Positions 42,801-60,909 of a DNA stretch of 64,000 nucleotides are shown one piece after another. Numbering within the stretch: position 1 is the first letter of the stretch; each line of letters opens with the position of its first letter. Location of the stretch: contig JAZQYP010000025.1 in NCBI GenBank assembly GCA_045633625.1, positions 19,313 to 83,312 of the forward strand, in the 5' to 3' direction. Below the pieces are notes generated by a model. That model searched no databases. It was not told the origin of the DNA and saw nothing but the letters and a program-made list of their open reading frames with translations. This DNA comes from Eubacteriales bacterium (GTDB lineage: Bacteria; Bacillota; Clostridia; Oscillospirales; CAG-272). The position numbers were made by a program, and so were the translations under genes.

Positions 42801-42858
42801 CGAGGCGGACAGCGAAGGAAAGCTCCACATACGTTGGGGAGAGCAAAATATAGCGTAA
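39850..42858 (+). CDS. Fusion protein: N6-adenine DNA methyltransferase domain + SNF2/DEAD-like helicase domain
   Basis: GTG start after AGGAGGTG. MTase motif I DLTCGIGNFF and motif IV GNPPFN. Helicase Walker A EQGCGKTLAG, DESDE box, C-terminal helicase lobe. Confidence 0.8.
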   Translation: MKYIARDERIPQDRRRELNDKILYLIDADLAEASGVSREDIYNAYTGDGGLHGLQRSDYDSYSDYSDAKKEIENGQFFTPPSICQMVAKCIGMGKGDLIADLTCGIGNFFNFMPTENNLYGCELDNKAYKVARYLYPDANIVNQDIRLYQPGILFDYVLGNPPFNLKWWIEGSKEIKSQLYYCIKAHELLKPCGIMAIVVPSSFLSDDFIDGNVIADMNAKFRFLGQFSLPENAFSPMGVQSFPTKLQFWQKRNDAEDVSMPYSADCPTSITYELTERINEAKKALSDSRMDILKATAQNKETSASFAYQVDKMLYQIRVHPRISSEHSRCCAYVHRFYTEKQPESMPYAEWCRVRLTEAKVLSYLKKVLKKQNERPPEDRIALVKRDYDFVYKGYSYASSRQISDQMKKPVPMYLLASSDGDNGFTPYSKLIERKQREYAIQNQQFSDMALDENISRALDEFTIWDSENEEEIHLNEKQKKDINLMLQKRYGLLQWEQGCGKTLAGIAVGLYRMQYQNVHHTWVISSAISIRNNWDIVLKNYGLSYVFVEELSDFDRIQKGDFVIITLNALRKYQKQIKRWVRIHNEKLQLIFDESDEISNASGATTKACLDCFRRVKYKLLETGTSTRNNISEFAPQMELLYNNSYNMISWCDRIYKRDKETGDLNSEENDYFGMPIPAYKRGYSLFSASHLPEKITVFGVGQRTQDIYNADVLSEILGKTVITRTFEEITGKDIRRIHQVPVKFSEAEKAVYQQAIEKFYEMRWNYFQSTGNSRKDSMMILMQQILTLLRISAAPSSMSEYAGDTPVKIQKVLSMVEEWDDEIVAIGVRHIPVLDEYRKAIEEAFPDRPLFVVTGGNTTFAKRRALRKTLKESGNGILLCTQQSLPSSVNFEYVNKIVIPELHYNNSRMSQFYMRFVRYTSTEWKDIYFVTYAGSIESNLMQMVMAKEKLNLFMKGQDADLDEIYEKFGVDYNLLSLLMRREADSEGKLHIRWGEQNIA

Positions 42859-43136: not shown

Positions 43137-43329
43137 GATCAATAAGCAACACAAATGGGACACCTGCATTCACGCTCTCTGTCCGTTTGGCAGAGGCTTT
43201 GCACTATGCAGCTACGGAATGGATATCCGTGGCAAAGACCTTTCTGCACGTGACTTTCCTATCTGTATGCAGAATGGAAAGTGTCTTAAGGAAGAGGCTG
43301 AAAAGAACAAAGAGGTGAATCCCAAATGA
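43129..43329 (+). CDS. Hypothetical Cys-rich small protein
   Basis: 66 aa with 5 Cys, translationally coupled on both sides. Confidence 0.3.
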   Translation: MAKINKQHKWDTCIHALCPFGRGFALCSYGMDIRGKDLSARDFPICMQNGKCLKEEAEKNKEVNPK

Positions 43330-44282
43330 TGAATAAGAGTGGTATTCCTTGGTGTGATTTTTCGTGGAATCCGATAACGGGCTGCAAGAAAAAATGCAAC
43401 GACTGCTTTGCACATAAAATTGCAAAGAGATTGTCCGGCTCGATACGGATAAATATTGGAAGTCCTGATATTCAAAAGGATCTGAAAAACAGATTGTTTG
43501 TTCTTGAGAAGCCCTTCCATTCCGAAAGAGGTACTGTGTCATTGTTTCCCGCAGGCTTTGATCCCACGTTTCACCGATACAGGCTTGGTATGATTTCATA
43601 TAAGCAAAAGCCCGCCAATATTTTTGTCGGAAGTATCGGAGATATGTTTGACGCATCTGTTCCAACGGAATGGATAACAGAGGTGTTTGAGGCATGTAAA
43701 AAAGCGTCCTGGCACAATTACCTATTTATGACGTGTAATCCTGAACGCTATACCGAGCTTGCCGAGCAAGAGCTGCTGCCAACAGGGGACAACTTTTGGT
43801 ACGGCAGTAGAATTGACTGCAACCAAGAAGTATTTTGCCGAGAGGGCTATCACACGTTTATTTGGATAGAACCGATAGAACGGTATGTGATTCCCGATGA
43901 GCTTCCACACTCTGAGTGGATAATCATTGGTTGCCAACCTCTGCTTCCGAGCAAGCGAAATATAGCCGACAAAGAACACATTCAGCAATTCATAAGCAAG
44001 ATCGGTGATGTTCCGTTGTTTATGAAAAGCAATGACAATATTAAGGCAGTATGGAAGGATAAATTGATATGTGAATACCCTATCCTTCTTAAGCGACCTC
44101 CCGATAAGCCTATCCCCCATTGCAACGAATGTAAGTATTGTCACAAGCTGCAAGAAGGAAAACGTGGAATAAGACACACCTGCACACACAGAAAAATATT
44201 ATCAAAGCATAAGGAAACAGGTGGACTTCATATTGATGGGCGTTATGCACGCACATCACCGCCCTGGTGTCCGAGAAGATAA
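43326..44282 (+). CDS. DUF5131 (phage Gp37/Gp68-like) protein
   Basis: The N-terminal GIPWCDFSWNPITGCKKKCNDCFAHK matches the family hallmark (IxW.d.tWNp.tGC....C..CyA). An extra Cys/His-rich tail is present. Confidence 0.6.
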   Translation: MMNKSGIPWCDFSWNPITGCKKKCNDCFAHKIAKRLSGSIRINIGSPDIQKDLKNRLFVLEKPFHSERGTVSLFPAGFDPTFHRYRLGMISYKQKPANIFVGSIGDMFDASVPTEWITEVFEACKKASWHNYLFMTCNPERYTELAEQELLPTGDNFWYGSRIDCNQEVFCREGYHTFIWIEPIERYVIPDELPHSEWIIIGCQPLLPSKRNIADKEHIQQFISKIGDVPLFMKSNDNIKAVWKDKLICEYPILLKRPPDKPIPHCNECKYCHKLQEGKRGIRHTCTHRKILSKHKETGGLHIDGRYARTSPPWCPRR

Positions 44283-46945: not shown

Positions 46946-47785
46946 ATGAAAAGAATTATAACTTCAAAAAGAATCAAAGACTTTGAAATCTATTTAAGAA
47001 ACGAAGAAAGGAGTAAAGCAACGATAGAAAAATATATGCGAGATGTGAGATATTTCACGTCATATGTTGGTGATGCAGAAATTGAAAAACAGAAAGTTCT
47101 TGATTATAAAAGTAAACTTATCGATGAATATGCTGTGGCAAGTGCCAATTCTATGATAGCGGCATTAAATTGTTTTCTTCGCTTTTGCGGTTGGCATAAT
47201 TTATGTGTTAAGCAATTCAAAATACAAAGAACTGTTTACTGTCCCGAAGAAAAGGAACTTACCCGTGAAGAGTATATTCGTTTGCTTGATGCGGCAAGCA
47301 AAAAGAACAACAAGAGATTAAATCTTATCATTCAGACAATTTGCGGAACTGGCATTCGTGTAAGTGAACTTGAATATATCACTGTTGAGGCGGTGCAAAA
47401 GAGCGAGGCTACAGTTAATTGTAAAGGAAAGAATAGAAAAATATTTATTGTCCCCGAATTAAGAAAAAAACTGCTCCGTTATGCAAAGGAGCAGGGGATA
47501 TGTGTTGGAACTCTATTTATAACGAGAGGTGGGAAACCAGTCAGTAGACATCATATTTGGAAAGAAATGAAGGCTCTTTGTAAGCAGGCAAATGTATCGC
47601 CAAGTAAAGTGTTTCCACATAATCTTCGCCATCTGTTCGCACGCACTTTTTATGGTATAGAAAAAGACATTGCCAAACTCGCAGACATACTGGGACACGC
47701 AAGCATTAACACGACACGTATTTATATAGTAACCACTGGTGCGGAGCATAAGCGCAAAATGGAGCACATGAGGCTCATCATATAA
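46946..47785 (+). CDS. Tyrosine site-specific recombinase (short, XerC/D-like, no arm-binding domain)
   Basis: Catalytic pattern GTGIRVSEL (R), HNLRHLFAR (HxxR), LGHASINTTRIY (H..Y); 279 aa. Confidence 0.85.
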   Translation: MKRIITSKRIKDFEIYLRNEERSKATIEKYMRDVRYFTSYVGDAEIEKQKVLDYKSKLIDEYAVASANSMIAALNCFLRFCGWHNLCVKQFKIQRTVYCPEEKELTREEYIRLLDAASKKNNKRLNLIIQTICGTGIRVSELEYITVEAVQKSEATVNCKGKNRKIFIVPELRKKLLRYAKEQGICVGTLFITRGGKPVSRHHIWKEMKALCKQANVSPSKVFPHNLRHLFARTFYGIEKDIAKLADILGHASINTTRIYIVTTGAEHKRKMEHMRLII

Positions 47786-47822: not shown

Positions 47823-47842
47823 CAACATAACGAGAGTTATGT
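47823..47842 (+). repeat. Recombinase-type core site copy A
   Basis: caACATAACgagaGTTATGT: 7-bp inverted arms around an asymmetric gaga spacer. Confidence 0.7.
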
Positions 47843-47854
47843 ACTTTCGAAAAT

Positions 47855-47874
47855 CAACATAACGAGAGTTATGT
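47855..47874 (+). repeat. Core site copy B (direct repeat of A, 32 bp downstream)
   Basis: A 20-mer identical to copy A. Confidence 0.7.
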
Positions 47875-47911
47875 GATATTAGGTATCCGACAAATTCCAG
47901 ATACATAAGTA

Positions 47912-47940
47912 ATTATACCACAAAAGCACGTAAAAATCAA
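47912..47940 (-). promoter_or_regulatory. Near-consensus promoter inside the IR-flanked segment, currently pointing left (away from the TetR/SipW operon)
   Basis: Minus strand: TTGATT (47940-47935) - 17 nt - TATAAT (47917-47912) with an extended TGg. Confidence 0.55.
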
Positions 47941-48013
47941 TAGGTTCAGCACAATTTATAAGCTCACTATAAAATTTTATTGAAATTGATATAAAAAATT
48001 GCATGACAAAAAC

Positions 48014-48061
48014 GCCTTTCGTATAAATTTTTCAAAAAATTATGGCGAAAGGCTTTTTTTG
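48014..48061. terminator. Bidirectional hairpin terminator inside the IR-flanked segment
   Basis: gcctttcg (48014-48021) pairs with cgaaaggc (48046-48053). T7 lies downstream and an A-run upstream; the loop is AT-rich and 24 nt long. Confidence 0.5.
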
Positions 48062-48118
48062 TTGCGCTCATTTTTATTCTGCTTCATTGTTTTTTTGCAA
48101 CGATTACCACTTTTATTA

Positions 48119-48136
48119 ACATAACTCTCGTTATGT
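48119..48136 (-). repeat. Core site copy C (inverted relative to A/B)
   Basis: acataacTCTCgttatgt is the reverse complement of the 18-bp core of A/B. Confidence 0.7.
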
Positions 48137-48280
48137 CGCTTTTTTACTCAGTGGACGGCATATTTTTAAGCTTCCTATGCAGATAGGATTTTTTTAGGAA
48201 TGTTTTGTAGTGTTCACTAATAGCCTTCTTGTTTTGAACAAAGTTTATCGGTTGCTGATGAAATGGAGGGGGATAACCGA

Positions 48281-48895
48281 ATGAGGTACGAGGCGGAAAT
48301 AAAAGAACTTCTAATTGAAAATGCAATACATCTTATTGCCGAAGGCGGCTTTGAAAAAGCGACAACCAAGGAACTTACTCACAGTGGAGGGCAATTGCCC
48401 GATTTCAAAATGAACGAGGTCTATATTTACCGTTTATTTGGTAGTAAAGAAAAGTTGTACGAAACAGCTTTCGTCCGTTTGGATGCAGAACTCTTACAAG
48501 CATTTAAGAATGGCGTAGAGCTTGTCGGCGGTTTTGATGGTGAACGTAAGAAAAAACTGAGCGAGTTTTTTATATTGGCTTGGAATTATATCTTGGGTAA
48601 CGAAGAGCGTTGCCGTTGTTACGTCAGATATTACTATTCGATCTATTTCAAGGGCGATTCCCGCAGATCTCATAAGAGACTTTTTGAGGGAATTATAACC
48701 GAAATGACTCCGATCTTCAAGGAAGAAGCGGATGTCGAAGCTATATTACACAGCGTTTTTACTGCGATGTTTGACTTTGCCATTCGTGTGTATAATGGTG
48801 AGCTTGAGGATAGTGATATTAACAGACCCCATATCTTCAACGTGCTCTACTGCATGATGGCGACATACTTCAAGGAGTCGGTAAAAGCGTCGTAG
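48281..48895 (+). CDS. TetR/AcrR-family transcriptional regulator
   Basis: N-terminal HTH LIENAIHLIAEGGFEKATTKELTHSGG with an all-helical remainder. An alternative start lies at 48263. Confidence 0.75.
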   Translation: MRYEAEIKELLIENAIHLIAEGGFEKATTKELTHSGGQLPDFKMNEVYIYRLFGSKEKLYETAFVRLDAELLQAFKNGVELVGGFDGERKKKLSEFFILAWNYILGNEERCRCYVRYYYSIYFKGDSRRSHKRLFEGIITEMTPIFKEEADVEAILHSVFTAMFDFAIRVYNGELEDSDINRPHIFNVLYCMMATYFKESVKAS

Positions 48896-48913: not shown

Positions 48914-49153
48914 TTGAAAAATCAAAAAGAAGCAAAGAAAATTGAACAAAAAATTGAGAACAAGGTCGTGTATGTTGCTACGAGCACAAATACCTGTATT
49001 TCTTGTGGTAGAGAGATACCTGAAGGTATGCTCGTTTGTATGATGTGTGATAATGGGGTGTCATGTCCACGATGTGTATGCTGTGATGCACCCTTGCATA
49101 ACGGTCAATCTGTTTGTGCTAAATGCAGCGAGATCTTTCTGAAAAGAAGATAA
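48914..49153 (+). CDS. Small zinc-ribbon protein
   Basis: AGGAGatcgaa-TTG. CISCG...CMMCDNGVSCPRCVCCD...CAKC. Confidence 0.4.
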   Translation: MKNQKEAKKIEQKIENKVVYVATSTNTCISCGREIPEGMLVCMMCDNGVSCPRCVCCDAPLHNGQSVCAKCSEIFLKRR

Positions 49154-49201: not shown

Positions 49202-50881
49202 ATGCCAAAAAACAAAAAAGACTCTGAAAATCGATTGATAAAAGGCATTATGATTGCAGGGGAAGCCGTGGCGGGCTTCTTTGCCCTTGTCGGACAAAGG
49301 ATATGCAGCAGTGTAAAATTTGAAAAGGTGATTGGTAAGGACGATCCTAACGCCATAGGAAAACGCATCAATAATATGAAGCGAATTGCCGCAATGATCG
49401 GGCTGCTGATCATTGTCCTCATTATTATAATATTGTCGCTCCGCGGTTGCCAAGGCGGCGAATTGCCGCATGGTTCGGTGGATATCCCGGGCAACGTCAT
49501 CGACCCGATACCGTCCGTTGTTACTCCGAAAGCTGATTTGGAGTTTAACAACAGTAACGCCGAAGAAAACATTCCGTTTGAGGTGGAAGGTATGAACGGC
49601 GGAGATAGTGAGTGCATTCTTTACCGCGTAGTGGCTACATACAATTCGGATTTCGTTTTGAAATACGATATGACGATCCGTGAGGATGAGGAATTTCAAA
49701 AGCTTGCTGAAATACTGAAAATTAAGGTTGAGCTTGTGAAAACAGATGGTGAGGCGCTTTTGTATGACGGTCTGCTTACCGATATGTCGGCAGTTGAAAT
49801 AGATTTGAACGCCGACAAGGATACTACGACCGAGTATCTGTTCCGTATCACTATGTACCTTGATGCTCCGCTTAGTGAGCAGTATTACGGTCAAAAGTTG
49901 ATAGCCGATATGTCTTGGTGGATCGAAGAGCAGGACAATATTTCGATTGCCAACAATGAATTCACTACCATTTCAAAGACAATACCGCCCGATCCGCCTG
50001 CCATAATACCGAATTTGAGCTTTATTACGAAAAATGAAGGCGATAACACCGCATTTGATATGCGGCATATTATGAACAGCGATCGTCAGACAAGGTATTT
50101 TGCCTTTGAGGTGACTCACGGTGAAGATGTTAAGATGGCTATTACGAACGCCATCGTGACCGACAGCAAGCTGAAAGAGGTGCTGAAAGTCAAGGTCGAG
50201 CTTGTGGGTGAGAATGGAAACACCATCCTCTACGAAGGTCTGCTCAAAGATCTCAACGTAGAGCACACTCTCACTAAAAACGACAACAATAAAACAGCAG
50301 TTTATTATAAGGTTACTGTCATTGCTGACGGTTTGACGGAAGATTATTGCGAAACCAAACTTGTATGCGATCTCTCGTGGACGCTTGACGGCACGAGTGA
50401 ACAGCTTAAAGTGCCCAGCAACAGCTTTGTTGCCTACGATAAGCCTGTAACACCGCCCGATCCTCCTACACCGCCCGAGGTGGCAACGTCCATCGAATTA
50501 ACGGCGAAGGACGGATATGATAATGTTCCGTTTTCGGTTGACAATATGCTCCCCGGCGACAACGCAACGCAATATTACTGTGTTTCGGTCACACACGACA
50601 GCACCGAGACTGTCCGCTTCTATATCAACGTGGACACGGCGCAAAACCTAACCGCAGTAATGCGCGTGAAGGTCGAGCAGCTTATACCCGATGCAGAAGA
50701 TAAGATTCTTTACGACGGACTCATGAAGGACTGCACCGCTGTTGACGTAAGCGTTACGGCAAGCTCTGAGACCGTCACACCCATCTACTACCGCATAACC
50801 GTTTATACCAATGGAGCCGAGGTCGGAAACGAATACGTGGGCGAAAGCCTTACCGCCGATTTCTCGTGGCAATTACAGTAA
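49202..50881 (+). CDS. Membrane-anchored protein with three tandem TasA/camelysin-like domains
   Basis: GAGGAGGataacg-ATG. TM IAAMIGLLIIVLIIIILSL. Three repeats of about 125 aa are separated by PPDPP linkers, each with the signature LK(V/I)KVE(L)V...(I/L)LY(D/E)GL(L/M).D ... (L/F)SW. Confidence 0.5.
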   Translation: MPKNKKDSENRLIKGIMIAGEAVAGFFALVGQRICSSVKFEKVIGKDDPNAIGKRINNMKRIAAMIGLLIIVLIIIILSLRGCQGGELPHGSVDIPGNVIDPIPSVVTPKADLEFNNSNAEENIPFEVEGMNGGDSECILYRVVATYNSDFVLKYDMTIREDEEFQKLAEILKIKVELVKTDGEALLYDGLLTDMSAVEIDLNADKDTTTEYLFRITMYLDAPLSEQYYGQKLIADMSWWIEEQDNISIANNEFTTISKTIPPDPPAIIPNLSFITKNEGDNTAFDMRHIMNSDRQTRYFAFEVTHGEDVKMAITNAIVTDSKLKEVLKVKVELVGENGNTILYEGLLKDLNVEHTLTKNDNNKTAVYYKVTVIADGLTEDYCETKLVCDLSWTLDGTSEQLKVPSNSFVAYDKPVTPPDPPTPPEVATSIELTAKDGYDNVPFSVDNMLPGDNATQYYCVSVTHDSTETVRFYINVDTAQNLTAVMRVKVEQLIPDAEDKILYDGLMKDCTAVDVSVTASSETVTPIYYRITVYTNGAEVGNEYVGESLTADFSWQLQ

Positions 50882-50896
50882 AGGAGACAATGGTAT

Positions 50897-51445
50897 ATGA
50901 ATGAACAAAATCTAAAGAAGAAGTTAACCGTGATGATCGTAACCGTCGTACTCCTTTCATTGGGACTTGCGATTACCAGCTTTGCCTTGGCAAGCTCTAT
51001 CGTCAGCATACGGAACAACCGTTTTACCATGAGTATGGGAGTTGATCTTACGATTAACGATGGAAAACCCATTGTTGACGTAACCGATATGGTTTATGAG
51101 CCCGGTGGAACCTATACAAGCGAATTTCCCATTGCTAACCTCGGCACGTTTGATGTGTGGTATCGTGTTTATCTTACGGGTGTGGACGGTGAATTAAAGG
51201 ACGATATTACCGTCACCATCAAGGAAAAGGACGGAACTGTTCTCGGCAAGGGTACGATGAACCAATTGACCGCCGATAAGGCAATGACAGGCAGTCTTGC
51301 CGCAGGAGAAGAAAAAACGCTTATCATTGAATTCTATTTCTCCCCCGATGCCGATAACAGTGCGCAGGGTCAAACCGTGTCTTTTAATATCACGGCAGAC
51401 GCAACGCAGAAGAAAAACAATCCCGACAAGGATTTCGGTAATTGA
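50897..51445 (+). CDS. Small TasA/camelysin-family protein
   Basis: Signal/anchor LTVMIVTVVLLSLGLAITSFALASS, then a single beta-rich domain ending ADATQ...DKDFG, like the junction motif of the large paralogs. Confidence 0.55.
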   Translation: MNEQNLKKKLTVMIVTVVLLSLGLAITSFALASSIVSIRNNRFTMSMGVDLTINDGKPIVDVTDMVYEPGGTYTSEFPIANLGTFDVWYRVYLTGVDGELKDDITVTIKEKDGTVLGKGTMNQLTADKAMTGSLAAGEEKTLIIEFYFSPDADNSAQGQTVSFNITADATQKKNNPDKDFGN

Positions 51446-51456
51446 GGGAGGACAGT

Positions 51457-52182
51457 ATGAAAAAAGCATTACAAATAACAAAGACCGTATTGGTTTGGCT
51501 TGTAGTCGCCATTGCGGTCGGTATGATGATATTTACGCTGATCTCGGTCAGTACATTCGATAAGACCGACAGAAACATATTCGGCTTCAAGTTCTTTATC
51601 GTCACGAGTGATTCGATGGCAGCCACTGACTTTGACGCAGGCGATATTGCGATATCGAAGAATGTTGACCCCAAAACGTTGAAAGAGGGCGACATAATTA
51701 CCTTCTTGTCGCAAGACCACGATAACTTCGGCGAGGTGGTTACGCATAAGATCAGAAGATTGACGACCGATGCAAACGGACGTCCCGGATTCGTTACCTA
51801 CGGTACTACGACTGATACCGATGACAGAACTGTTGTAACACATGAATACGTTGTCGGACAGTACGTTGGCAGAATACCGAAGGTGGGTTCGTTCTTTATG
51901 TTTCTTAAAACGACGCCCGGTTATATTCTTTGTATTCTTCTTCCTTTTCTGCTTCTTATTCTGTCTCAGGGACTTAATTGTATCCGTTTGTTCCGTCAAT
52001 ACAAAAAGGAACAAATGGACGAAATGAAGGCAGAAAGAGAAAAGATCGAGCAAGAACGCGCTGAAAGTCAGCGTATGATGGCAGAGCTGCTGGAGCTCAA
52101 AGCCCAGCTTGCCAAACAAGACGGTGGGGCAACGTCTCCCGCCGATCCTGCGTCCGAGGATATCACAACGGACGAAGCATAA
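51457..52182 (+). CDS. sipW: SipW-type (ER/archaeal-type) signal peptidase I with a C-terminal TM and coiled-coil tail
   Basis: GAGGGAGGacagt-ATG. Catalytic-Ser box FIVTSDSMAAT, GDIITF, VVTHKI His box. Confidence 0.8.
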   Translation: MKKALQITKTVLVWLVVAIAVGMMIFTLISVSTFDKTDRNIFGFKFFIVTSDSMAATDFDAGDIAISKNVDPKTLKEGDIITFLSQDHDNFGEVVTHKIRRLTTDANGRPGFVTYGTTTDTDDRTVVTHEYVVGQYVGRIPKVGSFFMFLKTTPGYILCILLPFLLLILSQGLNCIRLFRQYKKEQMDEMKAEREKIEQERAESQRMMAELLELKAQLAKQDGGATSPADPASEDITTDEA

Positions 52183-52254: not shown

Positions 52255-54366
52255 ATGACTAACACAAGATCCACAAAGCGCGCACTTCTCGCAAGCTTCA
52301 TGGCACTGCTCCTTTGCTTTTCCATGCTGCTTAGCACGACGTTCGCGTGGTTTACCGACTCTGTAACGAGCGGAAACAACATTATCCAATCCGGTAATCT
52401 TGACATAGAGCTTGAATACTGGAACGGAACCGCTTGGGCGGATGTAAAAGATGCTTCTGACATCCTTACCAACACCCTTTGGGAGCCCGGCGTAACCGAG
52501 GTTGCATACCTCAGAGTTGCCAACGCAGGTTCTCTCGCACTCAAGTATCAGCTTGGGATCAACATTCTCAACGAGCTTGAGGGCAAAAACCAGAAAGAAG
52601 AGACTTTCAAGCTCTCCGATTACATTATGTTCGGCGTAATTGAGGGCGTAAATGGTGAGACCACACCTTACCCCAAGGATGACGCAGGCAGAGCCGCAGC
52701 TATCACTGCTGTAACCGATGCTAAGATCATTTCTGCTGGCTACACCAAGGCATCTACCATGAATCCCGATGACGAGCTTTATCTCGCACTGGTAGTTTAT
52801 ATGCCTACAGATACTAATGATGTTGCTAACCACAACGGCACCGACATTCCTCAGATCGATCTTGGTATCAACGTATTTGCTACTCAGGTTGAAGCAGATC
52901 TTGAGACTGATAGCTTCGGTCCCGACTACGATAAGGACGCTTCGGCTTTTGTTTCTTCTGCTGATGAGCTGAGAGCGGCCATTGCAAATGTTAAGGATGG
53001 TGGCACGGTTTATGTAAATGATGGAACTTATAACATCAACAGCCAGCTCACCATTCCTGGAAAATCTGTTAACATCGTTGGTGTTGGTGAAAATGCAGTC
53101 ATTCATATGACCGACACAAGAGTTAACTACAACAAGATTTTCTACATTTACGGAAGTGCTGACGGTGAGGATGTAACTGTTAATATTAGCAATGTTACTT
53201 TGACCGCAGACATCGCTACCAAGTCTGACATTTGGATCAGAACCGATGGACCGAATGGTGAGAAGGTTAACGGCAATGTTACCGTAAATCTTGATAACGT
53301 TACTTGCGCTTCTATTATTTGCGACAACAACTACGTTGACGGTGATACTGTTAATCTTAAGATTGCGAACAGTAACGTTAAGAAGGTCGCTTTGGATGCA
53401 TCTCCGTTCAATGGTAATGGTCTCAATACCTACACAAACTTGACCTATAATGCTACAAGAATTGATAGCATAACCATTAGCTCTTTGGTTGAAGATCTTA
53501 CTCACATCACGATAAATGGTGTTAACCCCACTGCGACCGGTGAGCAGCAGACTCTGACATATGTTGATACTGCTGAGGAACTGCAAAGTGCTTTGGACAA
53601 TGCGGTTGACGGCGACGTCATCGTTCTCGGCGCTGACATTACGGGTGATGTAATGGCTACTCAGAAGCCTGATGTGAAGATTACTGTTGACGGTAACGGT
53701 CATGAGTTCAACGGAGTGTTCACTGTTAACGGTAAGAGCGCAGCTTATGCCACCGCTGCAATTACAATTCAAAATGTGAATTTCAATGCTGAAGGCATTT
53801 CCAAAGATGCGAGCATCAGATTTGGTGGAGACAACTCGATGCTTTACGTAGCGAACGTAACCGTTAAAAACTGTACTTTCACAGGCAATCTTGCAGATGA
53901 AAAGGTTGGCGTTAAGTCCTATACGGGCGGCGATAAAAATATTACCATTACTGGCTGTACGGCAACCGGAATGCACTCCTTGGCTCAGCTTTATGTTACC
54001 GAGGGCGTGACCATCACTGATTGTGAGATAGACAACAGTAAGAGCGGAATCAGTGTGCGTTCTTCTACAAATGTACTTATTTCAGATTGCAATATCAATA
54101 CAACAGTTTATGGTATCCGTGCTGACGGTGGTGCTTGCACACAGACCATCAAGAACAATACTATTACTGCAAAGCAGCCCATTGTTGTTCGCAAACTCAC
54201 TTCTGCTGGATACGTGCTTAACCTTGAAGGCAACACCTTGACAACTACATCCACAGACGGCTATCAGGTTATCCTGACAACCGGTGATGATGAAGCGGCA
54301 TACGTTGCTCCCGATGCCGGTAACTACACAGTTAACGGTCAGTCTGAGTTGAACTTCTTCAAATAA
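52255..54366 (+). CDS. SipW-dependent secreted protein 1: TasA-like N-domain + right-handed beta-helix (PbH1-type) C-domain
   Basis: Signal KRALLASFMALLLCFSMLLSTTFAWFTDSVTSGNNII. PbH1-like repeats (ITITGCTATG..., VTITDCEIDNSKSGISV, VLISDCNINTTVYGIRA). Confidence 0.7.
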   Translation: MTNTRSTKRALLASFMALLLCFSMLLSTTFAWFTDSVTSGNNIIQSGNLDIELEYWNGTAWADVKDASDILTNTLWEPGVTEVAYLRVANAGSLALKYQLGINILNELEGKNQKEETFKLSDYIMFGVIEGVNGETTPYPKDDAGRAAAITAVTDAKIISAGYTKASTMNPDDELYLALVVYMPTDTNDVANHNGTDIPQIDLGINVFATQVEADLETDSFGPDYDKDASAFVSSADELRAAIANVKDGGTVYVNDGTYNINSQLTIPGKSVNIVGVGENAVIHMTDTRVNYNKIFYIYGSADGEDVTVNISNVTLTADIATKSDIWIRTDGPNGEKVNGNVTVNLDNVTCASIICDNNYVDGDTVNLKIANSNVKKVALDASPFNGNGLNTYTNLTYNATRIDSITISSLVEDLTHITINGVNPTATGEQQTLTYVDTAEELQSALDNAVDGDVIVLGADITGDVMATQKPDVKITVDGNGHEFNGVFTVNGKSAAYATAAITIQNVNFNAEGISKDASIRFGGDNSMLYVANVTVKNCTFTGNLADEKVGVKSYTGGDKNITITGCTATGMHSLAQLYVTEGVTITDCEIDNSKSGISVRSSTNVLISDCNINTTVYGIRADGGACTQTIKNNTITAKQPIVVRKLTSAGYVLNLEGNTLTTTSTDGYQVILTTGDDEAAYVAPDAGNYTVNGQSELNFFK

Positions 54367-54577: not shown

Positions 54578-54816
54578 GAGATATAAATTCAAGGCAAGAA
54601 ATTCCGAGCTGAAAGGAGAAATTGAATTATAAAACAAGCTCAAAAAGCAAAATGCACAACATTTGGGATGTGTTTTTGCAAGATTGTGCAATAACCAACT
54701 CTCACAAAGACAAGGTTAAAGACGACAAATAATCGTTTTCGATTTGCGTTTTGCCGATATGGTCGAATAACGATTCCGAAACACATATTGGCAAAATCAA
54801 ACAGGAGGTCATTGGA

Positions 54817-56910
54817 ATGATGAAAAGAAACACAAAATCCGCTTTGCTTTCAAGTGTTCTTGCTTTGTTTCTTTGTTTCACGATGTTGCTGGGGACGACA
54901 TTCGCCTGGTTTACAGACAGCGTGACAAGTGCAAACAACCTGATCCGTTCCGGTAATCTTGACGTTGAGCTTGATTATTGGGACGCTGAAAACAGTGAGT
55001 GGAAAACCATTGAGGGAACCAGCTCTCTCTTTGCTAACAACCTTTGGGAGCCCGGTCACACCGAAGTTGTGTACCTCAAGCTCTCTAACCTTGGTTCTCT
55101 TGCTCTCAAATATCAGCTCAGCATCAACGTGCTGTCCGAAACTGAGGGTACAAATAAAGAAGGTGATACCTTTAAGCTTTCCGAGTACATTCAGATGGGT
55201 GTTAAAGAAGGTATTAACGGCGAGACTAATGCTTATGCTGACCGTGCAACAGCTGTTGAAGCTGTAAAGGATGCATCCGGTATCATCGGTGATGGCTACG
55301 CCAAGTCTGGTGAAATGATTGCTGATGCCGACGAGCTTTATATGGCTGTTGTAGTCTATATGCCGGAGACAGTTGACAACGAAGCAAATGCTATGACAGA
55401 CACCGACCTTCCCACCATCAACCTCGGCTTACAGGTGCTCGCAACGCAGTATGAGGCAGAGGATGATAGCTTTGATAATCAATACGATACAGGTCTTGAT
55501 CCAACAACAAGTTATATGTTCTCGGGAGCAGATCTACACAATTCTACTACGAGGTCCGGTAATTTCAAATTGTCTGAAGACATTAAAACCTCTGAAAGCA
55601 CTGCCCGTTATGGTTGGGGATATGAGTACATCATCAGAAATGGTGCTGACTACACTTTAGATCTGAATGGCAAAACAATCGTTCACGACACCATCAATGA
55701 AAATGCAAACAATAATGCACTCACCTATCTGTTTGTAGCTAACCACGCAGGCACCAAGCTGACTATCAACGGAGAAGGAAAAATCTACTCCAATAATAGT
55801 GCGGGTTGGACTTGTGCAGTACAAGGTAAGGATGGCACATTAGTTACCATTAACGGAGGAGATTTTGAAGTAGATAATGGTATTGCCGTTTGGGCTGGTG
55901 CAGGCTCCCATATTATTATCAATGGCGGTAGTTATGTCAACGGCAACGCAAATACGGATCACGAGCTTGTCTATTCCAGTGGCGGCGTGATCGATATTTA
56001 TGGCGGCTTCTTCCACAATACAGATGGCAATTATACCTTGAATGTTGAAGACAGAAACCGCGCAACCTCTGCTATCAACGTATACGGCGGCACCTTTGTG
56101 AACTTCGATCCCTCCACAGGCGGTCAGGATCCCGATCAGATCAAGGTTGCAGACGGTTATATGGTGAAAGAAAAAGCTCAGGAAAACGGTGACGTTTGGT
56201 ACACTGTAGTTCCGATTCCCGAGGGAACTGAAACCGTGTCCTCTTATGAGTCGCTTACGGATGCGAGCGGTACAAGCGGAGATCACGTTTTGGTTGGAGA
56301 TGTGGTTGCGACCGACAAGGTTTACTTTGGCGATAACACTACCAACACCATCGATTTGAACGGTAAATCCGTTTCCGCTACGGGAGACTATCTCTTTGCA
56401 ACAAGCGGTGAGAATTGTGTGTTAACCATCAACGGTGAGGGCGATATTTCTGCTAATGCCAGTTTCGCGGGCTTTGCGAACAACAGTGGTGAACTGAATA
56501 TTAACGGTGGTACATATCAACTTGGGGAAACCACGAAAACAGCACATTTTTATTCGCAGAATTCAGGCACAATAGTAATCAATGACGGCACCTTTATTTC
56601 TACTGATTCGGATACGCCGATTGTGTACTGCATAAATGGATTTATTGAAATCAATGGTGGATTCTTCCAAAACACCGCAAATCCCAATGCTGCACTTATC
56701 AGTATGGGTAACAATCTCAATTATGTTAACAACCAAAAGGTTACGCTTAGTGGTGGAACCTTCGTAAACTGGAATCCTGTAGTTGACAGTGCATTTGCTT
56801 ACGATTGGCCGCAATGTCCTGCACTGATCGTTCTTGCTGATGGATATCAGATGATTTCCGAAACACAGGCGAACGGGGACGTTTGGTATATGGTTGTTCC
56901 GATTGACTGA
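54817..56910 (+). CDS. SipW-dependent secreted protein 2: TasA-like N-domain + beta-helix-like C-domain
   Basis: AGGAGGtcattgga-ATG. KSALLSSVLALFLCFTMLLGTTFAWFTDSVTSANNLI. The ING(G/E)G...F motifs and the ADGY..(K/E)..ENGDVWY.VVPI element are each repeated twice. Confidence 0.7.
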   Translation: MMKRNTKSALLSSVLALFLCFTMLLGTTFAWFTDSVTSANNLIRSGNLDVELDYWDAENSEWKTIEGTSSLFANNLWEPGHTEVVYLKLSNLGSLALKYQLSINVLSETEGTNKEGDTFKLSEYIQMGVKEGINGETNAYADRATAVEAVKDASGIIGDGYAKSGEMIADADELYMAVVVYMPETVDNEANAMTDTDLPTINLGLQVLATQYEAEDDSFDNQYDTGLDPTTSYMFSGADLHNSTTRSGNFKLSEDIKTSESTARYGWGYEYIIRNGADYTLDLNGKTIVHDTINENANNNALTYLFVANHAGTKLTINGEGKIYSNNSAGWTCAVQGKDGTLVTINGGDFEVDNGIAVWAGAGSHIIINGGSYVNGNANTDHELVYSSGGVIDIYGGFFHNTDGNYTLNVEDRNRATSAINVYGGTFVNFDPSTGGQDPDQIKVADGYMVKEKAQENGDVWYTVVPIPEGTETVSSYESLTDASGTSGDHVLVGDVVATDKVYFGDNTTNTIDLNGKSVSATGDYLFATSGENCVLTINGEGDISANASFAGFANNSGELNINGGTYQLGETTKTAHFYSQNSGTIVINDGTFISTDSDTPIVYCINGFIEINGGFFQNTANPNAALISMGNNLNYVNNQKVTLSGGTFVNWNPVVDSAFAYDWPQCPALIVLADGYQMISETQANGDVWYMVVPID

Positions 56911-56975: not shown

Positions 56976-59375
56976 ATGACAAAAATGAAAACAACAAAAA
57001 GCGCTCTTGTTTTGAGCATAGTATCACTGTTCCTTTGTTTTACAATGCTCATCGGGACGACATTCGCTTGGTTCACCGACAGTGTGACGAGTGCAAATAA
57101 CATTATCAAGTCGGGTAATCTTGATATCGAGCTTTATCATACCGATGATAAAGCCGACCGCGTAAAGGTTGATAGTGATACAGTGCTATTTGATGATGTT
57201 TCCCTTTGGGAGCCCGGCGCAGTCGTTTACGAAACTTTTGAGGTTGTGAACGAGGGTGATCTCGCACTCAAATATCAGCTTTCTGTTAACGTAGCGAATG
57301 CAACAGCAAACGCTAATGGCAACACACTTTCCGATATTTTGAAGGTGGGCGTTATTGAAGGTGGTACGACCATCACCGACCGCACTGCTTTAATCGGTTG
57401 TGTAGCGGAATGGAAAGCACTTTCTTCATTCGTTGAGGCAGGTAATCTTGTCGAGAAAAATGAAAATGACATATACACAATCGTTATCTATTGGGAACCG
57501 AGTGAATACGATAACGATTACAATATGAACAACGGCGAAGGTGCTCCCCTTACGCTTGATATTGGGGTAACACTCTTTGCAACTCAGCTCACTGCGGAAA
57601 TGGATTCCTTTGGTGATGATTATGACGAATTCAGTGCAGTTACTACTGTTGCTGAGGCTGAAGCAATAATGGCACAAAACAAGGACGTTACCCTTGCAGG
57701 TTGCAACGAGCCTGATGGTGTCTTAAATATTCCTGCTGATTACACAGGTACATTGACTTTGGCGAATACTACTATTAAATCCGTGCAGGCTGAAAAGAAT
57801 GCGAATATTGTTATTCTTGGTAATGTAACAGTTGATGCTAACGGTAGCGGTATAGCTATGATGTCGTTGAACGAGGAAGCGTTTGATGGTTCTGCTATCA
57901 CCGCAAACGGCGAGTTGAATATTTCCGGTAGCGGAGCACTTACCGCCATTGCTGCTGATGTGACCGGCGCCTTCGGTATCGGCGGTATGAACGTAACTAA
58001 GCTTACGGTTAAAGATGTTCATATTGTAGACGTAAAGGGTAGCTTTGTCCAGCCTTTGTTCGTAAGCGATACAAAATATGGAAAGAGCGAGCCCGAGGGC
58101 GGAGCAGCAATCGGTTCTGGTTTTAACGGTGCGGAAATCAATCTGATTAACGTAACGATTGACAATGCACAAGGTGGCTCTAAGGCAGCAGGCATCGGTG
58201 CTCGTTATTGGACGGGTGTAACAATTAACATAATCGATTCTATCATTAAAAACGTAGAGGGCGGTAACGCTTCTGCCGGTATCGGTAGTAGCCGTGTAAG
58301 TGGTGATGCAACCGAGTCGGGCACGACGATCAGCATCACAAATTCCATCATAACCGCAAAAGGCGGTCAAGCGGGTGCGGGCATTGGCTCGGGATATGAT
58401 ACTCACTGCGGTTCCAATCAACCTATGTGTACAATCAACATTGCTGATTCCGCTATCAACGCTGAAGGCGGCAAGTATGCGGCAGGCGTTGGTACGGGTT
58501 ATCACAATGCAGCACTTAACGGTGAGATCAAGAATAGCACCGTAAATGCAAAGCCCGGTGAAGAATTTTACAAGGATTCTTACACTCTCGCTATGGACGT
58601 GGGCTTTGGTGTTATAGATCCTGCGCGTGAGGGTCAGCAGATCGATAGTAAGTTGATTTATAATGGCGTCGAAATCCGCCTCCCCTCCTGTGTAGTCGTT
58701 GCTAATGGCACAGAGCTTTCAGCCGCACTTGCGGAGGGTAAGAGCGTTATCCTCACCGATAATGTGGTTCTTGACGAGGCTCTCACTATTACGAAATCTG
58801 CTGTGATCCAGCTTAATGGCAAAACGCTGACCTCCAATGGACTTGATTTCCAAGCCGGTGCTACGATCAAGAACGGTGTCATTACGAGTGGTGGAAACAC
58901 TAATATGACTCCTCACATCAAAGTGTCTGGTGGCACATTGAATATGTATGATGTCACGGTAGACGTAAACCATCACCTGAACGCTAATGTATATTGGGCT
59001 GAGGCTACGGGCATTGAGGTGTGTAACGCATCCGCTATGTTTAATGACTGCCATATTAAGATTGATAATCCTACGGGAGCGCAGTGGGTTTACAGCTACG
59101 GTATCGGCTTGAATAATGCAACAGTAACGATGAACGGCGGTTCTATTACCGCAGATTGTGCAGAAGGAACTGCCGCAGAAGGACCTACCAATCCTAACGC
59201 AATTAGCTCTATGGGTGAATGTACCATAACACTTAACAGCGTAAATGTTGATGCTACCTATTACGCCACTACTGTTAATGGACATCTTACCATCAATACA
59301 ACGGATAAAAACATAACAAGTTCAGATGTTGTTGATAACAGCGGTGGTAGCCATACTCTGAACTATATTGACTGA
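56976..59375 (+). CDS. SipW-dependent secreted protein 3: TasA-like N-domain + Gly-rich beta-helix (GG.AAGIG repeats)
   Basis: KSALVLSIVSLFLCFTMLIGTTFAWFTDSVTSANNII. Repeats GGAAIGSG / GGSKAAGIG / GGNASAGIG / GGQAGAGIG / GGKYAAGVG. Confidence 0.7.
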   Translation: MTKMKTTKSALVLSIVSLFLCFTMLIGTTFAWFTDSVTSANNIIKSGNLDIELYHTDDKADRVKVDSDTVLFDDVSLWEPGAVVYETFEVVNEGDLALKYQLSVNVANATANANGNTLSDILKVGVIEGGTTITDRTALIGCVAEWKALSSFVEAGNLVEKNENDIYTIVIYWEPSEYDNDYNMNNGEGAPLTLDIGVTLFATQLTAEMDSFGDDYDEFSAVTTVAEAEAIMAQNKDVTLAGCNEPDGVLNIPADYTGTLTLANTTIKSVQAEKNANIVILGNVTVDANGSGIAMMSLNEEAFDGSAITANGELNISGSGALTAIAADVTGAFGIGGMNVTKLTVKDVHIVDVKGSFVQPLFVSDTKYGKSEPEGGAAIGSGFNGAEINLINVTIDNAQGGSKAAGIGARYWTGVTINIIDSIIKNVEGGNASAGIGSSRVSGDATESGTTISITNSIITAKGGQAGAGIGSGYDTHCGSNQPMCTINIADSAINAEGGKYAAGVGTGYHNAALNGEIKNSTVNAKPGEEFYKDSYTLAMDVGFGVIDPAREGQQIDSKLIYNGVEIRLPSCVVVANGTELSAALAEGKSVILTDNVVLDEALTITKSAVIQLNGKTLTSNGLDFQAGATIKNGVITSGGNTNMTPHIKVSGGTLNMYDVTVDVNHHLNANVYWAEATGIEVCNASAMFNDCHIKIDNPTGAQWVYSYGIGLNNATVTMNGGSITADCAEGTAAEGPTNPNAISSMGECTITLNSVNVDATYYATTVNGHLTINTTDKNITSSDVVDNSGGSHTLNYID

Positions 59376-59397
59376 TTTAAAAGGAGGTTATAACAGA

Positions 59398-60909
59398 ATG
59401 AAAAAGATAAAAAGCACTAAATCTGCTTTGATTTCCAGTGTTTTGGCACTGCTCCTTTGCTTCACAATGTTGCTTGGGACGACGTTCGCGTGGTTTACCG
59501 ACTCTGTAACGAGCGGAAACAACATTATCAAGTCCGGAAATCTTGACATTGAACTTGAATACTGGAATGGTACTGAATGGACAGATGTAAAGGACGCATC
59601 CGATATTCTCACCAATTCGCTTTGGGAACCCGGCGTAACCGAGGTAGCATACCTCAGAGTTGCAAATGCAGGCTCACTTGCTTTGAAGTATCAGCTTGGT
59701 GTAAATATTCTTTCCGAGAAAGAAGGAATCAACAAGGCTGGTGTCCCCCTCAAGCTTTCCGATTATATTATGTTCGGAGTCGTTGAAGGTGTGGACGGTT
59801 CGAGTGATGCTTATACCAAGGATGACGCAGGCAGAGCCGCAGCTATCGCTGCTGTAACCGACGCAAAGAAGATCTCTGCCGGATACACCAAGGAGGCAAC
59901 TATGGTCCCCGATGACGAGCTTTATCTCGCATTGGTGGTTTATATGCCTACCGACGTTAATGACGATGCTAATCACAACGGTGTCACTGTTCCTCAGATT
60001 GATCTCGGTATCACCATACTTGCTACCCAGTTTACTTATGAAAACGATAGCTTCGGTGATCAGCACGATAAAGATGCAAAGTATCCTGTAGTGTATGATT
60101 ATAAAGTCGACACTTTGGATGAATTAAAGGAAGCTTTTGCAAAAGGCGGCAATGTAATTCTTACCGATGATATTGAATTTGAGAAGCTGACTGCAATTGA
60201 ACCCGGCGCAGATGTTTATCTGAACCTGAACGGTAAAACAATTACCGTTGATGAAAACACTACGAGCAATACGCTTATCTGGGTTAAAGAGGGCGCAAAG
60301 CTTACCGTTGACGGTAATGGCACCATCGATTTGGGTAGCGTTTCCACAATGGCTATCTTTGCTCCCTACGGTGAGCTTGTAATTGAAAACGGCACCTTCA
60401 TCAGAGATGAGGTAACTGTCGTTACAAATTCTACAACCGGTCTTTTTATGGGTTGTAAGACCACTGCTTCCAATGTAACCATCAACGGTGGTTACTTTGA
60501 TCCCGGTTATTATGATGAAAACGCTGCAAATATAGAAGATATTCTCGCAGGTACTGCTGAATTTACCGAAACTGCGGATGATATTGCTAAGCGCGGCAAT
60601 TCTAAGGATGCTAACCTCGTTCGTGTAGCAGTTAAGGACAATATCTCTGTTATACTGAATCACTCCGGTTACGGTTCGTTCAAGGTTTATGGTGGCACCT
60701 TCGTGGGTGCTAACCCTGCGTGGGGTGATGAAGGTTGTATGCTTCCTACCACTCCCAACTATCTCCGTCCTTGGTCCTATTATCAGGGTGCTCTTCTTGA
60801 CGGTCAGACATTCAACGAGAACGAAATCGTTATTCCCGAAGGTTACACTATCACTAAGGGAACCACCGCTGATGGCGTACCTACTTATACGGTAGAGTAC
60901 AACAAGTAA
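59398..60909 (+). CDS. SipW-dependent secreted protein 4: N-domain nearly identical to protein 1, with a different C-domain
   Basis: AAAGGAGGttataacaga-ATG, 22 nt after the stop of protein 3. A 51-nt identity run links 59479-59529 to 52336-52386. Confidence 0.7.
   Translation: MKKIKSTKSALISSVLALLLCFTMLLGTTFAWFTDSVTSGNNIIKSGNLDIELEYWNGTEWTDVKDASDILTNSLWEPGVTEVAYLRVANAGSLALKYQLGVNILSEKEGINKAGVPLKLSDYIMFGVVEGVDGSSDAYTKDDAGRAAAIAAVTDAKKISAGYTKEATMVPDDELYLALVVYMPTDVNDDANHNGVTVPQIDLGITILATQFTYENDSFGDQHDKDAKYPVVYDYKVDTLDELKEAFAKGGNVILTDDIEFEKLTAIEPGADVYLNLNGKTITVDENTTSNTLIWVKEGAKLTVDGNGTIDLGSVSTMAIFAPYGELVIENGTFIRDEVTVVTNSTTGLFMGCKTTASNVTINGGYFDPGYYDENAANIEDILAGTAEFTETADDIAKRGNSKDANLVRVAVKDNISVILNHSGYGSFKVYGGTFVGANPAWGDEGCMLPTTPNYLRPWSYYQGALLDGQTFNENEIVIPEGYTITKGTTADGVPTYTVEYNK

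Follow-up and report, generated by a model that had tools for sequence, protein, structure and literature searches.

In the TasA filament, the mature N-terminal strand beta0 of one subunit (residues 28-38 or 31-41) completes the next subunit (PMC9674648), being inserted between strands beta9 and beta2 in antiparallel orientation to beta9 (N220-A230), with G42 touching N59 and L60 of the neighbour's NLKPGD segment (PMC10151520). A subunit complemented in this manner extends its own donor strand, and TapA acts only by donating its N-terminus (PMC9674648, PMC10151520). For the sipW-bsaA operon of Clostridium perfringens, LPXTG-bearing BsaB-like proteins were speculated to anchor the BsaA oligomers, and strain 13 possesses a fusion of two bsaB genes (PMC11580942). 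The present study concerns a protein of 559 amino acids (aa) encoded at positions 49202-50881 (+ strand) of a 64,000-nucleotide stretch of DNA from Eubacteriales bacterium (CAG-272; assembly GCA_045633625.1, contig JAZQYP010000025.1, positions 19,313-83,312 of the forward strand), referred to as the window. This protein, in the following the target, carries three tandem units with remote homology to the TasA-like core behind a single robust hydrophobic helix, and we consider it about evenly likely, as judged from its sequence and setting, to be the base by which a TasA-type donor-strand fibre or display system, dependent on SipW, is attached to the cell.

Anatomy of the Target Protein

The target was divided into the following parts:

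49202-49372, + strand: N-terminal tail on the cytoplasmic side, aa 1-57; of basic character, aa 9-37 being modelled as a helix with low confidence
49373-49444, + strand: strong hydrophobic helix, aa ~58-81; Kyte-Doolittle peak 3.3, AlphaFold2 helix 51-82
49445-49513, + strand: juxtamembrane segment RGCQGGELPHGSVDIPGNVIDPI, aa 82-104; modelled as disordered, with a predicted local distance difference test (pLDDT) score <50
49529-49930, + strand: core of unit 1 (r1 type), aa 110-243; PGD interface motif degenerate (GMNGGD)
49931-49972, + strand: beta0-like strand of unit 2, QDNISIANNEFTTI, aa 244-257; located after a 3-residue turn that follows beta9 of unit 1
49973-50005, + strand: Pro-rich linker 1, SKTIPPDPPAI; situated between beta0 and core, an insertion relative to TasA-like proteins
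50006-50398, + strand: core of unit 2 (r2 type), aa 269-399; the least conserved unit, with a degenerate IMNSD
50399-50437, + strand: beta0-like strand of unit 3, EQLKVPSNSFVAY, aa 400-412; AlphaFold2 strand 401-411, aligned to beta0 by hhalign
50438-50482, + strand: Pro-rich linker 2, DKPVTPPDPPTPPEV
50483-50878, + strand: core of unit 3 (r3 type), aa 428-559; the most conserved unit, keeping NMLPGD; candidate acceptor site

The preliminary description of this gene, made from the nucleotide letters and their translations, had proposed three linked domains behind a cytoplasmic segment and membrane helices. The open reading frame of 559 aa, the three domains and the PPDPP linkers (at aa 262 and 418) proved to be real, and all motifs quoted at that time (F.V..M..GD, LK(I/V)KVELV, and (L/F)SW) are present. 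The three repeats (aa ~110-251, 269-400, and 428-559) share 30-32% identity in pairwise comparisons, with BLASTP E values of 4e-20, 4e-24, and 8e-19. They start with FEVEGMNGGD, FDMRHIMNSD, and FSVDNMLPGD, feature LKIKVELV..LLYDGLLTD, LKVKVELV..ILYEGLLKD, and MRVKVEQL..ILYDGLMKD in the middle, and end with MSWW, LSWT, and FSWQ, respectively. The C-terminus of the protein reads ADFSWQLQ*, so that the stop codon is placed 3 residues past the beta9 tryptophan of unit 3. Regarding the membrane topology, only one helix (aa ~58-81) was found to be robust; a second one at aa 12-31 was rejected, as it is weakly hydrophobic, has low confidence values in the model, and is missing or altered in many homologs. 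The cytoplasmic tail ranges from ~12 to 60 aa across the homologs. Judged by its sequence, the hydrophobic helix would be either a signal-anchor or a signal peptide, uncleaved or cleaved, and a scan of the target with TIGR04088, the model of the SipW-cognate signal, gave no match.

The most conserved stretch of the whole protein is the juxtamembrane motif LLRGCQGGxPPHG(S/T)VDIPGNVIDP, in which P96, G97, N98, and D101 are invariant within the close family described below. In unit 1, its part SVDIPGNVID (aa 92-101) is the candidate for a beta0-like donor-strand motif. Behind the membrane helix, RGCQ (aa 82-85, 49445-49456) contains a near-invariant cysteine in a lipobox-like L-R/H-G/S-C context. 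Assignment of the target as a lipoprotein was rejected, as LRGC, LHGC, and LRSC have R or H at position -2, compared to the lipobox [LVI][ASTVI][GAS]C; the absence of the cysteine from P0053 and the L018 variant (LRAQ), and an N-terminal region of up to 60 aa, also speak against it.

AlphaFold2 modelling of the full-length protein with 41 homologs yielded three beta-sandwiches (mean pLDDT 83.5, cores mostly >90), and unit 3 modelled alone from a 44-sequence repeat alignment reached a pLDDT of 95.2 and a predicted template modelling score of 0.88. In the full-length model, beta9 of unit 1 (aa 232-241) is followed by a strand at aa 245-256, and beta9 of unit 2 (aa 386-395) by one at aa 401-411. 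This tenth strand precedes the PPDPP linker in units 1 and 2, whereas unit 3 ends at its last core strand. The beta2-equivalent segment PFxVx was modelled as a strand in units 1 and 2 (aa 127-131 and 286-290) and as coil in unit 3 in both models. Two cysteines of unit 3, C460 and C511 (50579-50581 and 50732-50734), are invariant across the family and could form a stabilising disulfide.

Relation of the Repeat Units to the TasA Fold

The target was not assigned to any Pfam or NCBIfam family as a full protein, and 44 isolated repeat units likewise matched no family of these two databases and gave no PF12389 match even at E <= 10. BLASTP of the repeats against the small TasA/camelysin-like protein encoded directly downstream of the target gave no match either, an hmmsearch of the PDB sequences with the domain profile returned 0 matches, and a hhalign comparison of the domain with a thin alignment of the six window paralogs was non-significant (2.8%). 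The latter result was superseded by richer alignments: 154 repeat units of the wider family were aligned to 20 small TasA-like modules, trimmed of their membrane helix, with a probability of 95.9% (P 5e-9) over 115 columns, compared to 0.3-0.6% in controls with one side reversed. A second profile-profile comparison between the repeat domain and the small TasA-like family gave 86.2% (P 4.9e-6). The pattern shared with the small TasA-like protein, as postulated in the preliminary description, was thus recovered at the profile level (95.9% and 86.2%), but not by BLASTP, Pfam, or NCBIfam.

The connection to TasA itself was provided by the profile of the small family, for which the best PDB matches were the TasA structures 8AUR (E 0.007) and 5OF1 (E 0.009). 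In the corresponding alignment, its N-terminal segment "vtvennifqtg" falls on I32-G42 (beta0) and "NeaqnetvsfnikadAtQ" on TasA QNKYQGNSIKLQFSFEATQ (beta9). The last core strand of the target (..L-x-A-D-x-S-W) aligns with the TasA-like beta9 motif. By this profile evidence, the repeats and the TasA-like core are connected by a remote homology, detectable at the profile level only.

In structure searches with Foldseek, the full-length model retrieved generic tandem immunoglobulin (Ig)-like proteins (Antigen I/II, integrin legs, and RbmA) with template modelling (TM) scores <0.2, which represents a multi-domain artefact. All matches obtained for the single domain were weak (E 3e-4 to 2e-3, TM 0.37-0.50); nine of the ten top matches were donor-strand-complemented fibre subunits, namely FimA (9FW9), Pyrodictium cannulae (9H8B), the PapG pilin domain (3ME0, 2WMP), FimG (5IQO, 3BFQ, 5IQM), 7UEG, and 7PNB.

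Donor-Strand-Like Segments

Extended units, comprising the residues in front of each core, were compared with the TasA-like family by means of hhalign. The segments HGSVDIPGNV, QDNISIANNEFTT, and EQLKVPSNSFVAY all align to the beta0 consensus v-x-V-x-x-N-x-F-x-t-g, with P values of 4e-5 to 9e-5 for the beta0 alignments and 0.03-0.68 for the reversed controls; the Pro-rich linker is treated by the program as an insertion of 15-16 aa. In a scan with position-specific scoring matrices (PSSM) derived from TasA-like beta0 segments, the site at aa 244 ranked first with two of the four matrices and second with the other two. Hence, at moderate statistical significance, each unit appears to keep a relic of the TasA N-terminal donor strand beta0.

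In the TasA filament, beta0 of one subunit pairs with beta9 of another, and in the target, the order beta9, 3-residue turn, beta0 would reproduce this filament pairing within one chain. The beta9/beta0 pairing deduced in this way for units 1 and 2 would mimic the TasA filament contact, and both units, together with the strand of the following unit, appear to be already complemented within the chain.

Operon Context and Close Homologs

The target gene is part of a row of co-directional genes, extending from a recombinase gene to a group of large paralogs:

46946-47785, + strand: tyrosine recombinase gene
48263-48895, + strand: TetR-like regulator, located between the invertible switch described below and the target, and kept in nearly all related loci
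48914-49153, + strand: double zinc-ribbon protein, 79 aa; found in most loci, missing in some (L001, L008-L011)
49202-50881, + strand: target open reading frame, 559 aa plus stop codon, ATG start
50897-51445, + strand: small TasA/camelysin-like protein, 182 aa; Pfam PF12389 (Peptidase_M73) at 7e-10; conserved neighbour
51442-52182, + strand: SipW-type (archaeal/ER-type) signal peptidase I; TIGR02228 with 65 bits versus a cut-off of 51.85
52255-54366, 54751-56910, 56976-59375, 59368-60909, and 60994-62847, + strand: five large secreted paralogs

The signal peptidase also matches the NCBIfam model NF046067 (SipW; E = 7e-22), and the start of its gene overlaps the stop of the small TasA-like gene, whose product is the probable partner of the target. 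In the preliminary description, the target had been placed in the position that tapA occupies. This does not exactly agree with the gene order, since it is the small TasA-like gene that abuts and overlaps sipW, with the target one gene further upstream, unlike the order tapA-sipW-tasA. The large paralogs (513-799 aa) consist of a SipW-type signal, a TasA-like N-domain of ~220 aa and a differing C-terminal region. Three of them were tested with TIGR04088 and exceeded its cut-off of 19 (21.9-22.2 bits); only the first paralog showed weak, below-cut-off matches to the beta-helix-type models NosD, para-beta-helix repeat, and PglA. Their number and C-terminal regions vary among related loci. The large paralogs give the impression of exchangeable cargo or adhesin subunits within a heteropolymeric fibre.

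The SipW protein carries a charged extension of ~60 aa (KKEQMDEMKAEREKIEQERAESQRMMAELLELKAQLAK...) after its last hydrophobic segment (51990-52182, aa ~185-246), which appears coiled-coil-like by eye. The SipW of B. subtilis is shorter than that of the window, and the NCBIfam model comprises 189 positions. Across distant loci, SipW is the most conserved gene product of the module (58-67% identity, compared to ~35% for the anchor protein).

Among 74 homologs found, 71 members with 48-95% identity to the target constitute the close family, all of which originate from metagenome-assembled genomes of uncultured gut Clostridia/Eubacteriales from sheep colon or faeces. The synteny of recombinase, TetR-like regulator, optional zinc-ribbon protein, target, small TasA-like protein, SipW, and variable large paralogs was found in 7/7 loci with enough sequence that had been identified via the target, and the same gene order in 7/7 places obtained from four reverse look-ups starting at the small TasA-like protein. 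A lack of the target in otherwise conserved loci, considered in the preliminary description as an argument against its role, was consequently not observed at any of these places.

Conservation within the close family is unevenly distributed, with 24 invariant columns in r3, 17 in r1, and 5 in r2. The C-terminus takes the form F/L-x-W-x-x-x* in 68 of 70 homologs, one of the remaining two having one extra residue and the other being a fragment. Most members contain three units; four were counted in P0006 and five (r1, three r2, and r3) in P0001-P0004 and L018/L019. One-unit homologs (L016/L017, L020/L021, and L022) are 225-239 aa long, of the r3 type, and 74-81% identical to unit 3 of the target. 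It is r2 that varies in copy number, from 0 to 3 across the homologs, and the terminal unit and the juxtamembrane motif are retained in all copy-number versions. Since one-unit and five-unit versions occupy the same synteny as the target, the number three is not essential.

A Wider Family of Cell-Anchored TasA-Like Cores

An exhaustive profile search revealed that the domain of ~130 aa occurs in 733 clusters at 50% identity (602 at E <= 1e-10), mostly in single-domain proteins with a length of 220-340 aa. The distant members P0072-P0074 are matched by the target itself at E values of 8e-15 to 6e-12. Among the 148 best members, 95 have an N-terminal helix, xPxTG or a similar xxxTG within the last 50 residues and a subsequent hydrophobic C-terminal segment, and two single-domain members scored above the cut-off of TIGR01167 (LPXTG anchor). 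A C-terminal (S/P)PxTG sorting signal with membrane helix and basic tail was found neither in the target nor in nearly all of its close homologs, the target subfamily having only the N-terminal helix in place of the sorting signal.

The juxtamembrane motif is not confined to the close family. A motif (S/T)V(V/T)VPDN(I/V)ITP is located ~12 aa after the helix (interquartile range 10-13) in 88 of 139 single-domain members (63%), compared to 6% in shuffles, and is separated from the core by a low-complexity linker with a median length of 44 aa. The segment SVDIPGNVIDP of the target is the same motif.

Gene contexts were examined for six distant members. In four of them (P0072, P0079, P0095, and P0110), a small TasA-like gene of 181-189 aa follows directly downstream with overlapping stop/start codons and is itself followed by sipW; in three of these four, the small gene is 39-42% and sipW 58-67% identical to the window counterparts. 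P0074 is an in-frame fusion and is followed by sipW. In the case of P0073 (L012 2317-3528), sipW lies upstream, and the protein features an extra isopeptide pilin domain of the FctA/Spy0128 type (PF12892), a Ser/Thr-rich stalk, and a sorting signal, so that sortase-pilus and TasA-type modules are combined in one chain.

In at least eight representatives (P0074, P0078, P0111, P0123, P0129, P0155, P0166, and P0189; locus L014), the domain, the sorting signal and the membrane helix are fused in frame to a Peptidase_M73 module. The PF12389 label on P0074 was discarded as evidence for the shared domain, as it falls in the fused C-terminal module. The order of parts in the fusions (domain, xPxTG, membrane helix, basic loop, second membrane helix serving as signal, TasA-like module) is topologically coherent. 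Three fusions were read with respect to beta0: P0129 and P0155 start with an ordinary signal peptide, and their domain part is devoid of any beta0-like motif, whereas P0123 has a beta0-like segment. In P0129 and P0155, only the small module could therefore donate a strand, a pattern that mildly favours acceptor polarity for the anchored domain. Taken together, these gene orders and fusions indicate that the link between an anchored TasA-like core, a small TasA-like protein, and SipW would be ancient and independent of the anchor type.

Comparison with Described Systems

With TasA/CalY (PF12389; 8AUR, 5OF1), the target shares the beta-sandwich core, homologous at the profile level, and, at moderate significance, a putative beta0-like strand before each core. 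Likewise, the beta9 motif N-x-Y-x-G-x-x-L-x-x-x-F-x-W corresponds to NKYQGNSIKLQFSF in TasA, the PGD interface motif is kept in unit 3, and both are genetically linked to SipW. In contrast to TasA, the target is not detected by PF12389, lacks a SipW-cognate signal according to the scan above, and possesses a cytoplasmic tail and a membrane helix. Its chain comprises three units with cores of ~130 aa (~200 aa in TasA), the Pro-rich linker is inserted between the putative beta0 and the core, and this beta0 is fused behind the preceding beta9. By profile homology and genomic context, the target is placed in the TasA superfamily, yet it fails both PF12389 and the SipW-cognate signal model.

Similarities to TapA (YqxM, TIGR04087) concern the role and the N-terminus. 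Both are minor, operon-encoded accessory proteins proposed to link fibres to the cell, both have a long N-terminal signal region, and the target may provide or receive the first strand. However, TapA has a complete V-set Ig fold, is a donor only, has no tandem TasA-like units, shows no detected sequence relationship to the target, and is encoded directly upstream of sipW, a place held here by the small TasA-like gene. When the target was scanned against NCBIfam, only a spurious match (E = 0.019) to a mycoplasma pilin-like model in the membrane-helix region was obtained, and as far as such scans can tell, the target is not a member of the TapA family.

Going by their description, BsaB-like proteins resemble the wider family, since a TasA-like protein with a sortase signal is encoded beside a second TasA-like gene in a SipW operon, and the natural fusion of two genes parallels the P0074-type fusions. 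The target differs by its tandem units and by the N-terminal membrane helix instead of LPXTG. The idea of fibre anchoring by an LPXTG-bearing TasA-like protein has already been raised, speculatively, for BsaB-like proteins (PMC11580942). What appears to be new is the extent of the unannotated family together with its tight linkage, the tandem architecture of variable unit number with its predicted in-chain complementation, the N-terminal membrane root replacing the sortase signal, and the conserved juxtamembrane beta0-like motif.

Chaperone-usher pilins are the nearest structural neighbours of the single domain. In self-complemented pilins (CfaB-CfaB 3F84, FimA, and FimG), the order of last strand, short turn, and donor strand was engineered, which would correspond to the natural arrangement of the target. 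Nevertheless, there is no evolutionary relationship to these pilins, TM scores reach only 0.37-0.44, the host is Gram-positive, and the assembly context is that of SipW; no chaperone or usher gene was found among the locus genes scanned against Pfam and NCBIfam. The archaeal bundling pili AbpA (7UEG) and the Sulfolobus threads (7PNB), also among the top fold matches, are donor-strand-complemented beta-sandwich filaments as well, but are built from single-unit secreted subunits and were matched weakly (TM 0.43-0.44). A statement of Böhning et al. (PMC9674648), made with reference to Wang et al., describes some archaeal donor-strand fibres as structurally related to TasA.

Proposed Function and Alternative Explanations

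An anchoring or base component working through donor-strand contacts is the function that we consider rather probable for the target; the specific version outlined below, with r3 as the acceptor, is put forward tentatively and at somewhat less than an even chance. The N-terminal hydrophobic helix would keep the protein in the membrane, and outside the cell, the TasA-like beta-sandwich units would form a short stalk. Within this stalk, the beta0 of each unit would be set apart from its own core by the rigid Pro-rich linker, and the beta0 of unit n+1, located directly after beta9 of unit n, would pair with the latter. Units 1 and 2 would in this way be complemented within one polypeptide and serve as spacers, corresponding to a covalent mini-filament. 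The terminal r3, which has no following strand and retains NMLPGD, would accept the beta0 of a secreted subunit processed by SipW, most likely that of the co-encoded 182-aa small TasA-like protein, to which the five large TasA fusions would in turn be added in the same manner. The length of the stalk would depend on how many r1/r2 units are present (0 to 4 among the homologs). The finding that members of the wider family are mainly surface-anchored and encoded beside, or fused to, a small TasA-like gene fits an anchoring role. The preliminary description had likewise suggested an anchor presenting acceptor domains, which is in line with this surface anchoring next to small TasA-like and sipW genes; that all three domains are free acceptors is, however, unlikely.

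Several observations weigh against this explanation. The beta0 assignment is only moderately significant: in the PSSM scan, the ~99th percentile was reached only for the junction between units 1 and 2 and only with the pooled matrix, the other two sites being weak, and the prolines in the juxtamembrane motif are unusual for a donor strand. The in-chain pairing was deduced from DSSP strings, the 3-residue turn, and homology rather than from coordinates. Unit 3 folds confidently alone (pLDDT 95) and may be self-sufficient instead of an open acceptor. Structure prediction and comparison with TasA, as advised in the preliminary description, provided three confident beta-sandwiches, but TasA was absent from the best 50 single-domain Foldseek matches, which were weak in any case. 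It is also conceivable that the hydrophobic helix is removed as a signal; long hydrophobic regions occur in SipW substrates, and the signal peptide of TapA comprises 43 aa. Finally, a bsaB mutant of C. perfringens still forms BsaA oligomers (PMC11580942), implying that, if the target is a relative of BsaB, such proteins are not needed for polymerisation.

The main rival explanation is that the target acts as a TapA-like donor or nucleator, whose free juxtamembrane strand SVDIPGNVID invades the first secreted TasA-like monomer at the surface of the membrane. As unit 1 would be complemented by the strand of unit 2, its own beta0 would be permanently free, and exchange could start either from the tethered protein or after signal cleavage, the three domains functioning mainly as a pre-activated seed. 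Such a role, which could coexist with that of an acceptor, draws on the juxtamembrane motif being the most conserved part of the protein and recurring in 63% of the distant single-domain members, with a constant spacing of ~12 aa to the membrane helix. The motif conforms to V-x-V-x-x-N-x-I-x-T, the pattern of beta0, and its disorder in the model would suit a strand that has yet to meet its partner; moreover, such a role agrees with the TasA logic, in which the complemented subunit extends its own strand and TapA donates its N-terminus (PMC9674648, PMC10151520). On the other hand, prolines flank the 5-residue core of the motif, its alignment to beta0 is the weakest of the three units, it could equally be a processing or recognition site, and P0129 and P0155 are linked to a small TasA-like module in spite of having no beta0-like motif on the domain. 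Overall, we regard the donor role as unlikely, albeit deserving serious attention.

The target would be a secreted building block if its helix were a cleaved signal, and a pre-linked trimer would then polymerise head-to-tail (beta0 into the next r3) or cap fibres. Both ends required for this, a free beta0-like strand and an uncomplemented terminal unit, appear to be present, one-unit homologs resemble ordinary TasA-like proteins with a different signal peptide, and L-R-G/A before the conserved region could be a -3/-1 signal peptidase site. Considering that the SipW-cognate signal found in the three large paralogs tested was not detected in the target, that the cytoplasmic tail is long and partly conserved (KFEK...KRINNMKR) in most homologs, and that the rest of the family is covalently wall-anchored, so that cell attachment was argued to be the conserved property, this arrangement seems quite improbable. 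Least credible, with a very small chance of being correct, is a generic Ig-like stalk or adhesin that shares only the operon and has no role in fibre assembly. It would account for the generic tandem Ig-like proteins (Antigen I/II, integrin legs, and RbmA) matched by the full-length model and for the lack of a Pfam or NCBIfam family matching the target, but is opposed by the profile-level homology to the TasA-like module, the apparently retained beta0 and interface motifs, the strict adjacency to the small TasA-like gene and sipW with overlapping start/stop codons, and the repeated fusion with the small TasA-like protein across distant lineages.

Putative Phase-Variation Switch and Surroundings of the Operon

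Upstream of the TetR-like regulator, a putative switch was identified:

Within 47825-48136: invertible promoter segment of ~240 bp, bounded by 18-bp sites at 47825, 47857, and 48119
47940-47912, - strand: strong TG-extended sigma70-like promoter inside the segment, directed away from the operon in the window

The 18-bp palindromic sites are perfectly conserved and read ACATAACGAGAGTTATGT at 47825 and 47857 and ACATAACTCTCGTTATGT at 48119. Relative to the fixed flanks, the segment has the same orientation as in the window in three related loci (L002, L006, and L009) and is inverted in seven (L001, L004, L007, L008, L011, L020, and L021). Together with the direction of the promoter, this comparison points to phase variation of the entire TasA-like operon, with the window in the OFF orientation. 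Because both orientations of the segment were found among the loci, the adjacent tyrosine recombinase is probably the phase-variation recombinase. An assignment of this enzyme to a conjugative element was revised, as it travels with the operon, also where the flanks consist of arginine- or proline-biosynthesis genes.

The region at ~10000-44300 of the window contains conjugation-type genes, and the following features were recorded in this part:

12540-13853: T2SSE ATPase
16909-20865: adhesin of 1318 aa with Listeria-Bacteroides repeats and MucBP
21992-24487: VirB4/TraG-like ATPase
27001-28800: VirD4-type coupling protein
39850-42858: N6-methylase-SNF2 fusion
43326-44282: DUF5131 protein

The fibre operon is located at the edge of this conjugative element. 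Since the operon adjoins arginine- or proline-biosynthesis genes in other genomes, its linkage to the element may be incidental.

Implications for TasA-Type Surface Display

The role of TapA in anchoring in B. subtilis and the route by which BsaA oligomers of C. perfringens are anchored to the membrane are open questions in the field. The locus presented here makes the attachment of TasA-type fibres to the cell, itself an open question, testable. Within a large unannotated family of cell-anchored TasA-like cores, the target represents a tandem, membrane-rooted variant and, as proposed from its model, would be a natural example of in-chain donor-strand complementation.

A more far-reaching interpretation, which we rate as somewhat more likely to be wrong than right, is that of a natural, covalently concatenated TasA-type mini-filament, joined by the peptide chain and by in-chain donor-strand complementation, and serving phase-variable, non-covalent surface display. 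From its root in the membrane, the protein would use zero to four spacer units to adjust how far its single open acceptor reaches through the cell wall. This acceptor would be the docking site of the small TasA-like adaptor, whose translation is coupled at 1:1, and changing large proteins, each composed of a TasA-like N-domain and a variable passenger, would be displayed by donor-strand chaining. Fibres of this kind in gut Clostridia appear to be phase-variable, and if the interpretation is true, they would constitute a display system parallel to sortase pili and cellulosome scaffolds.

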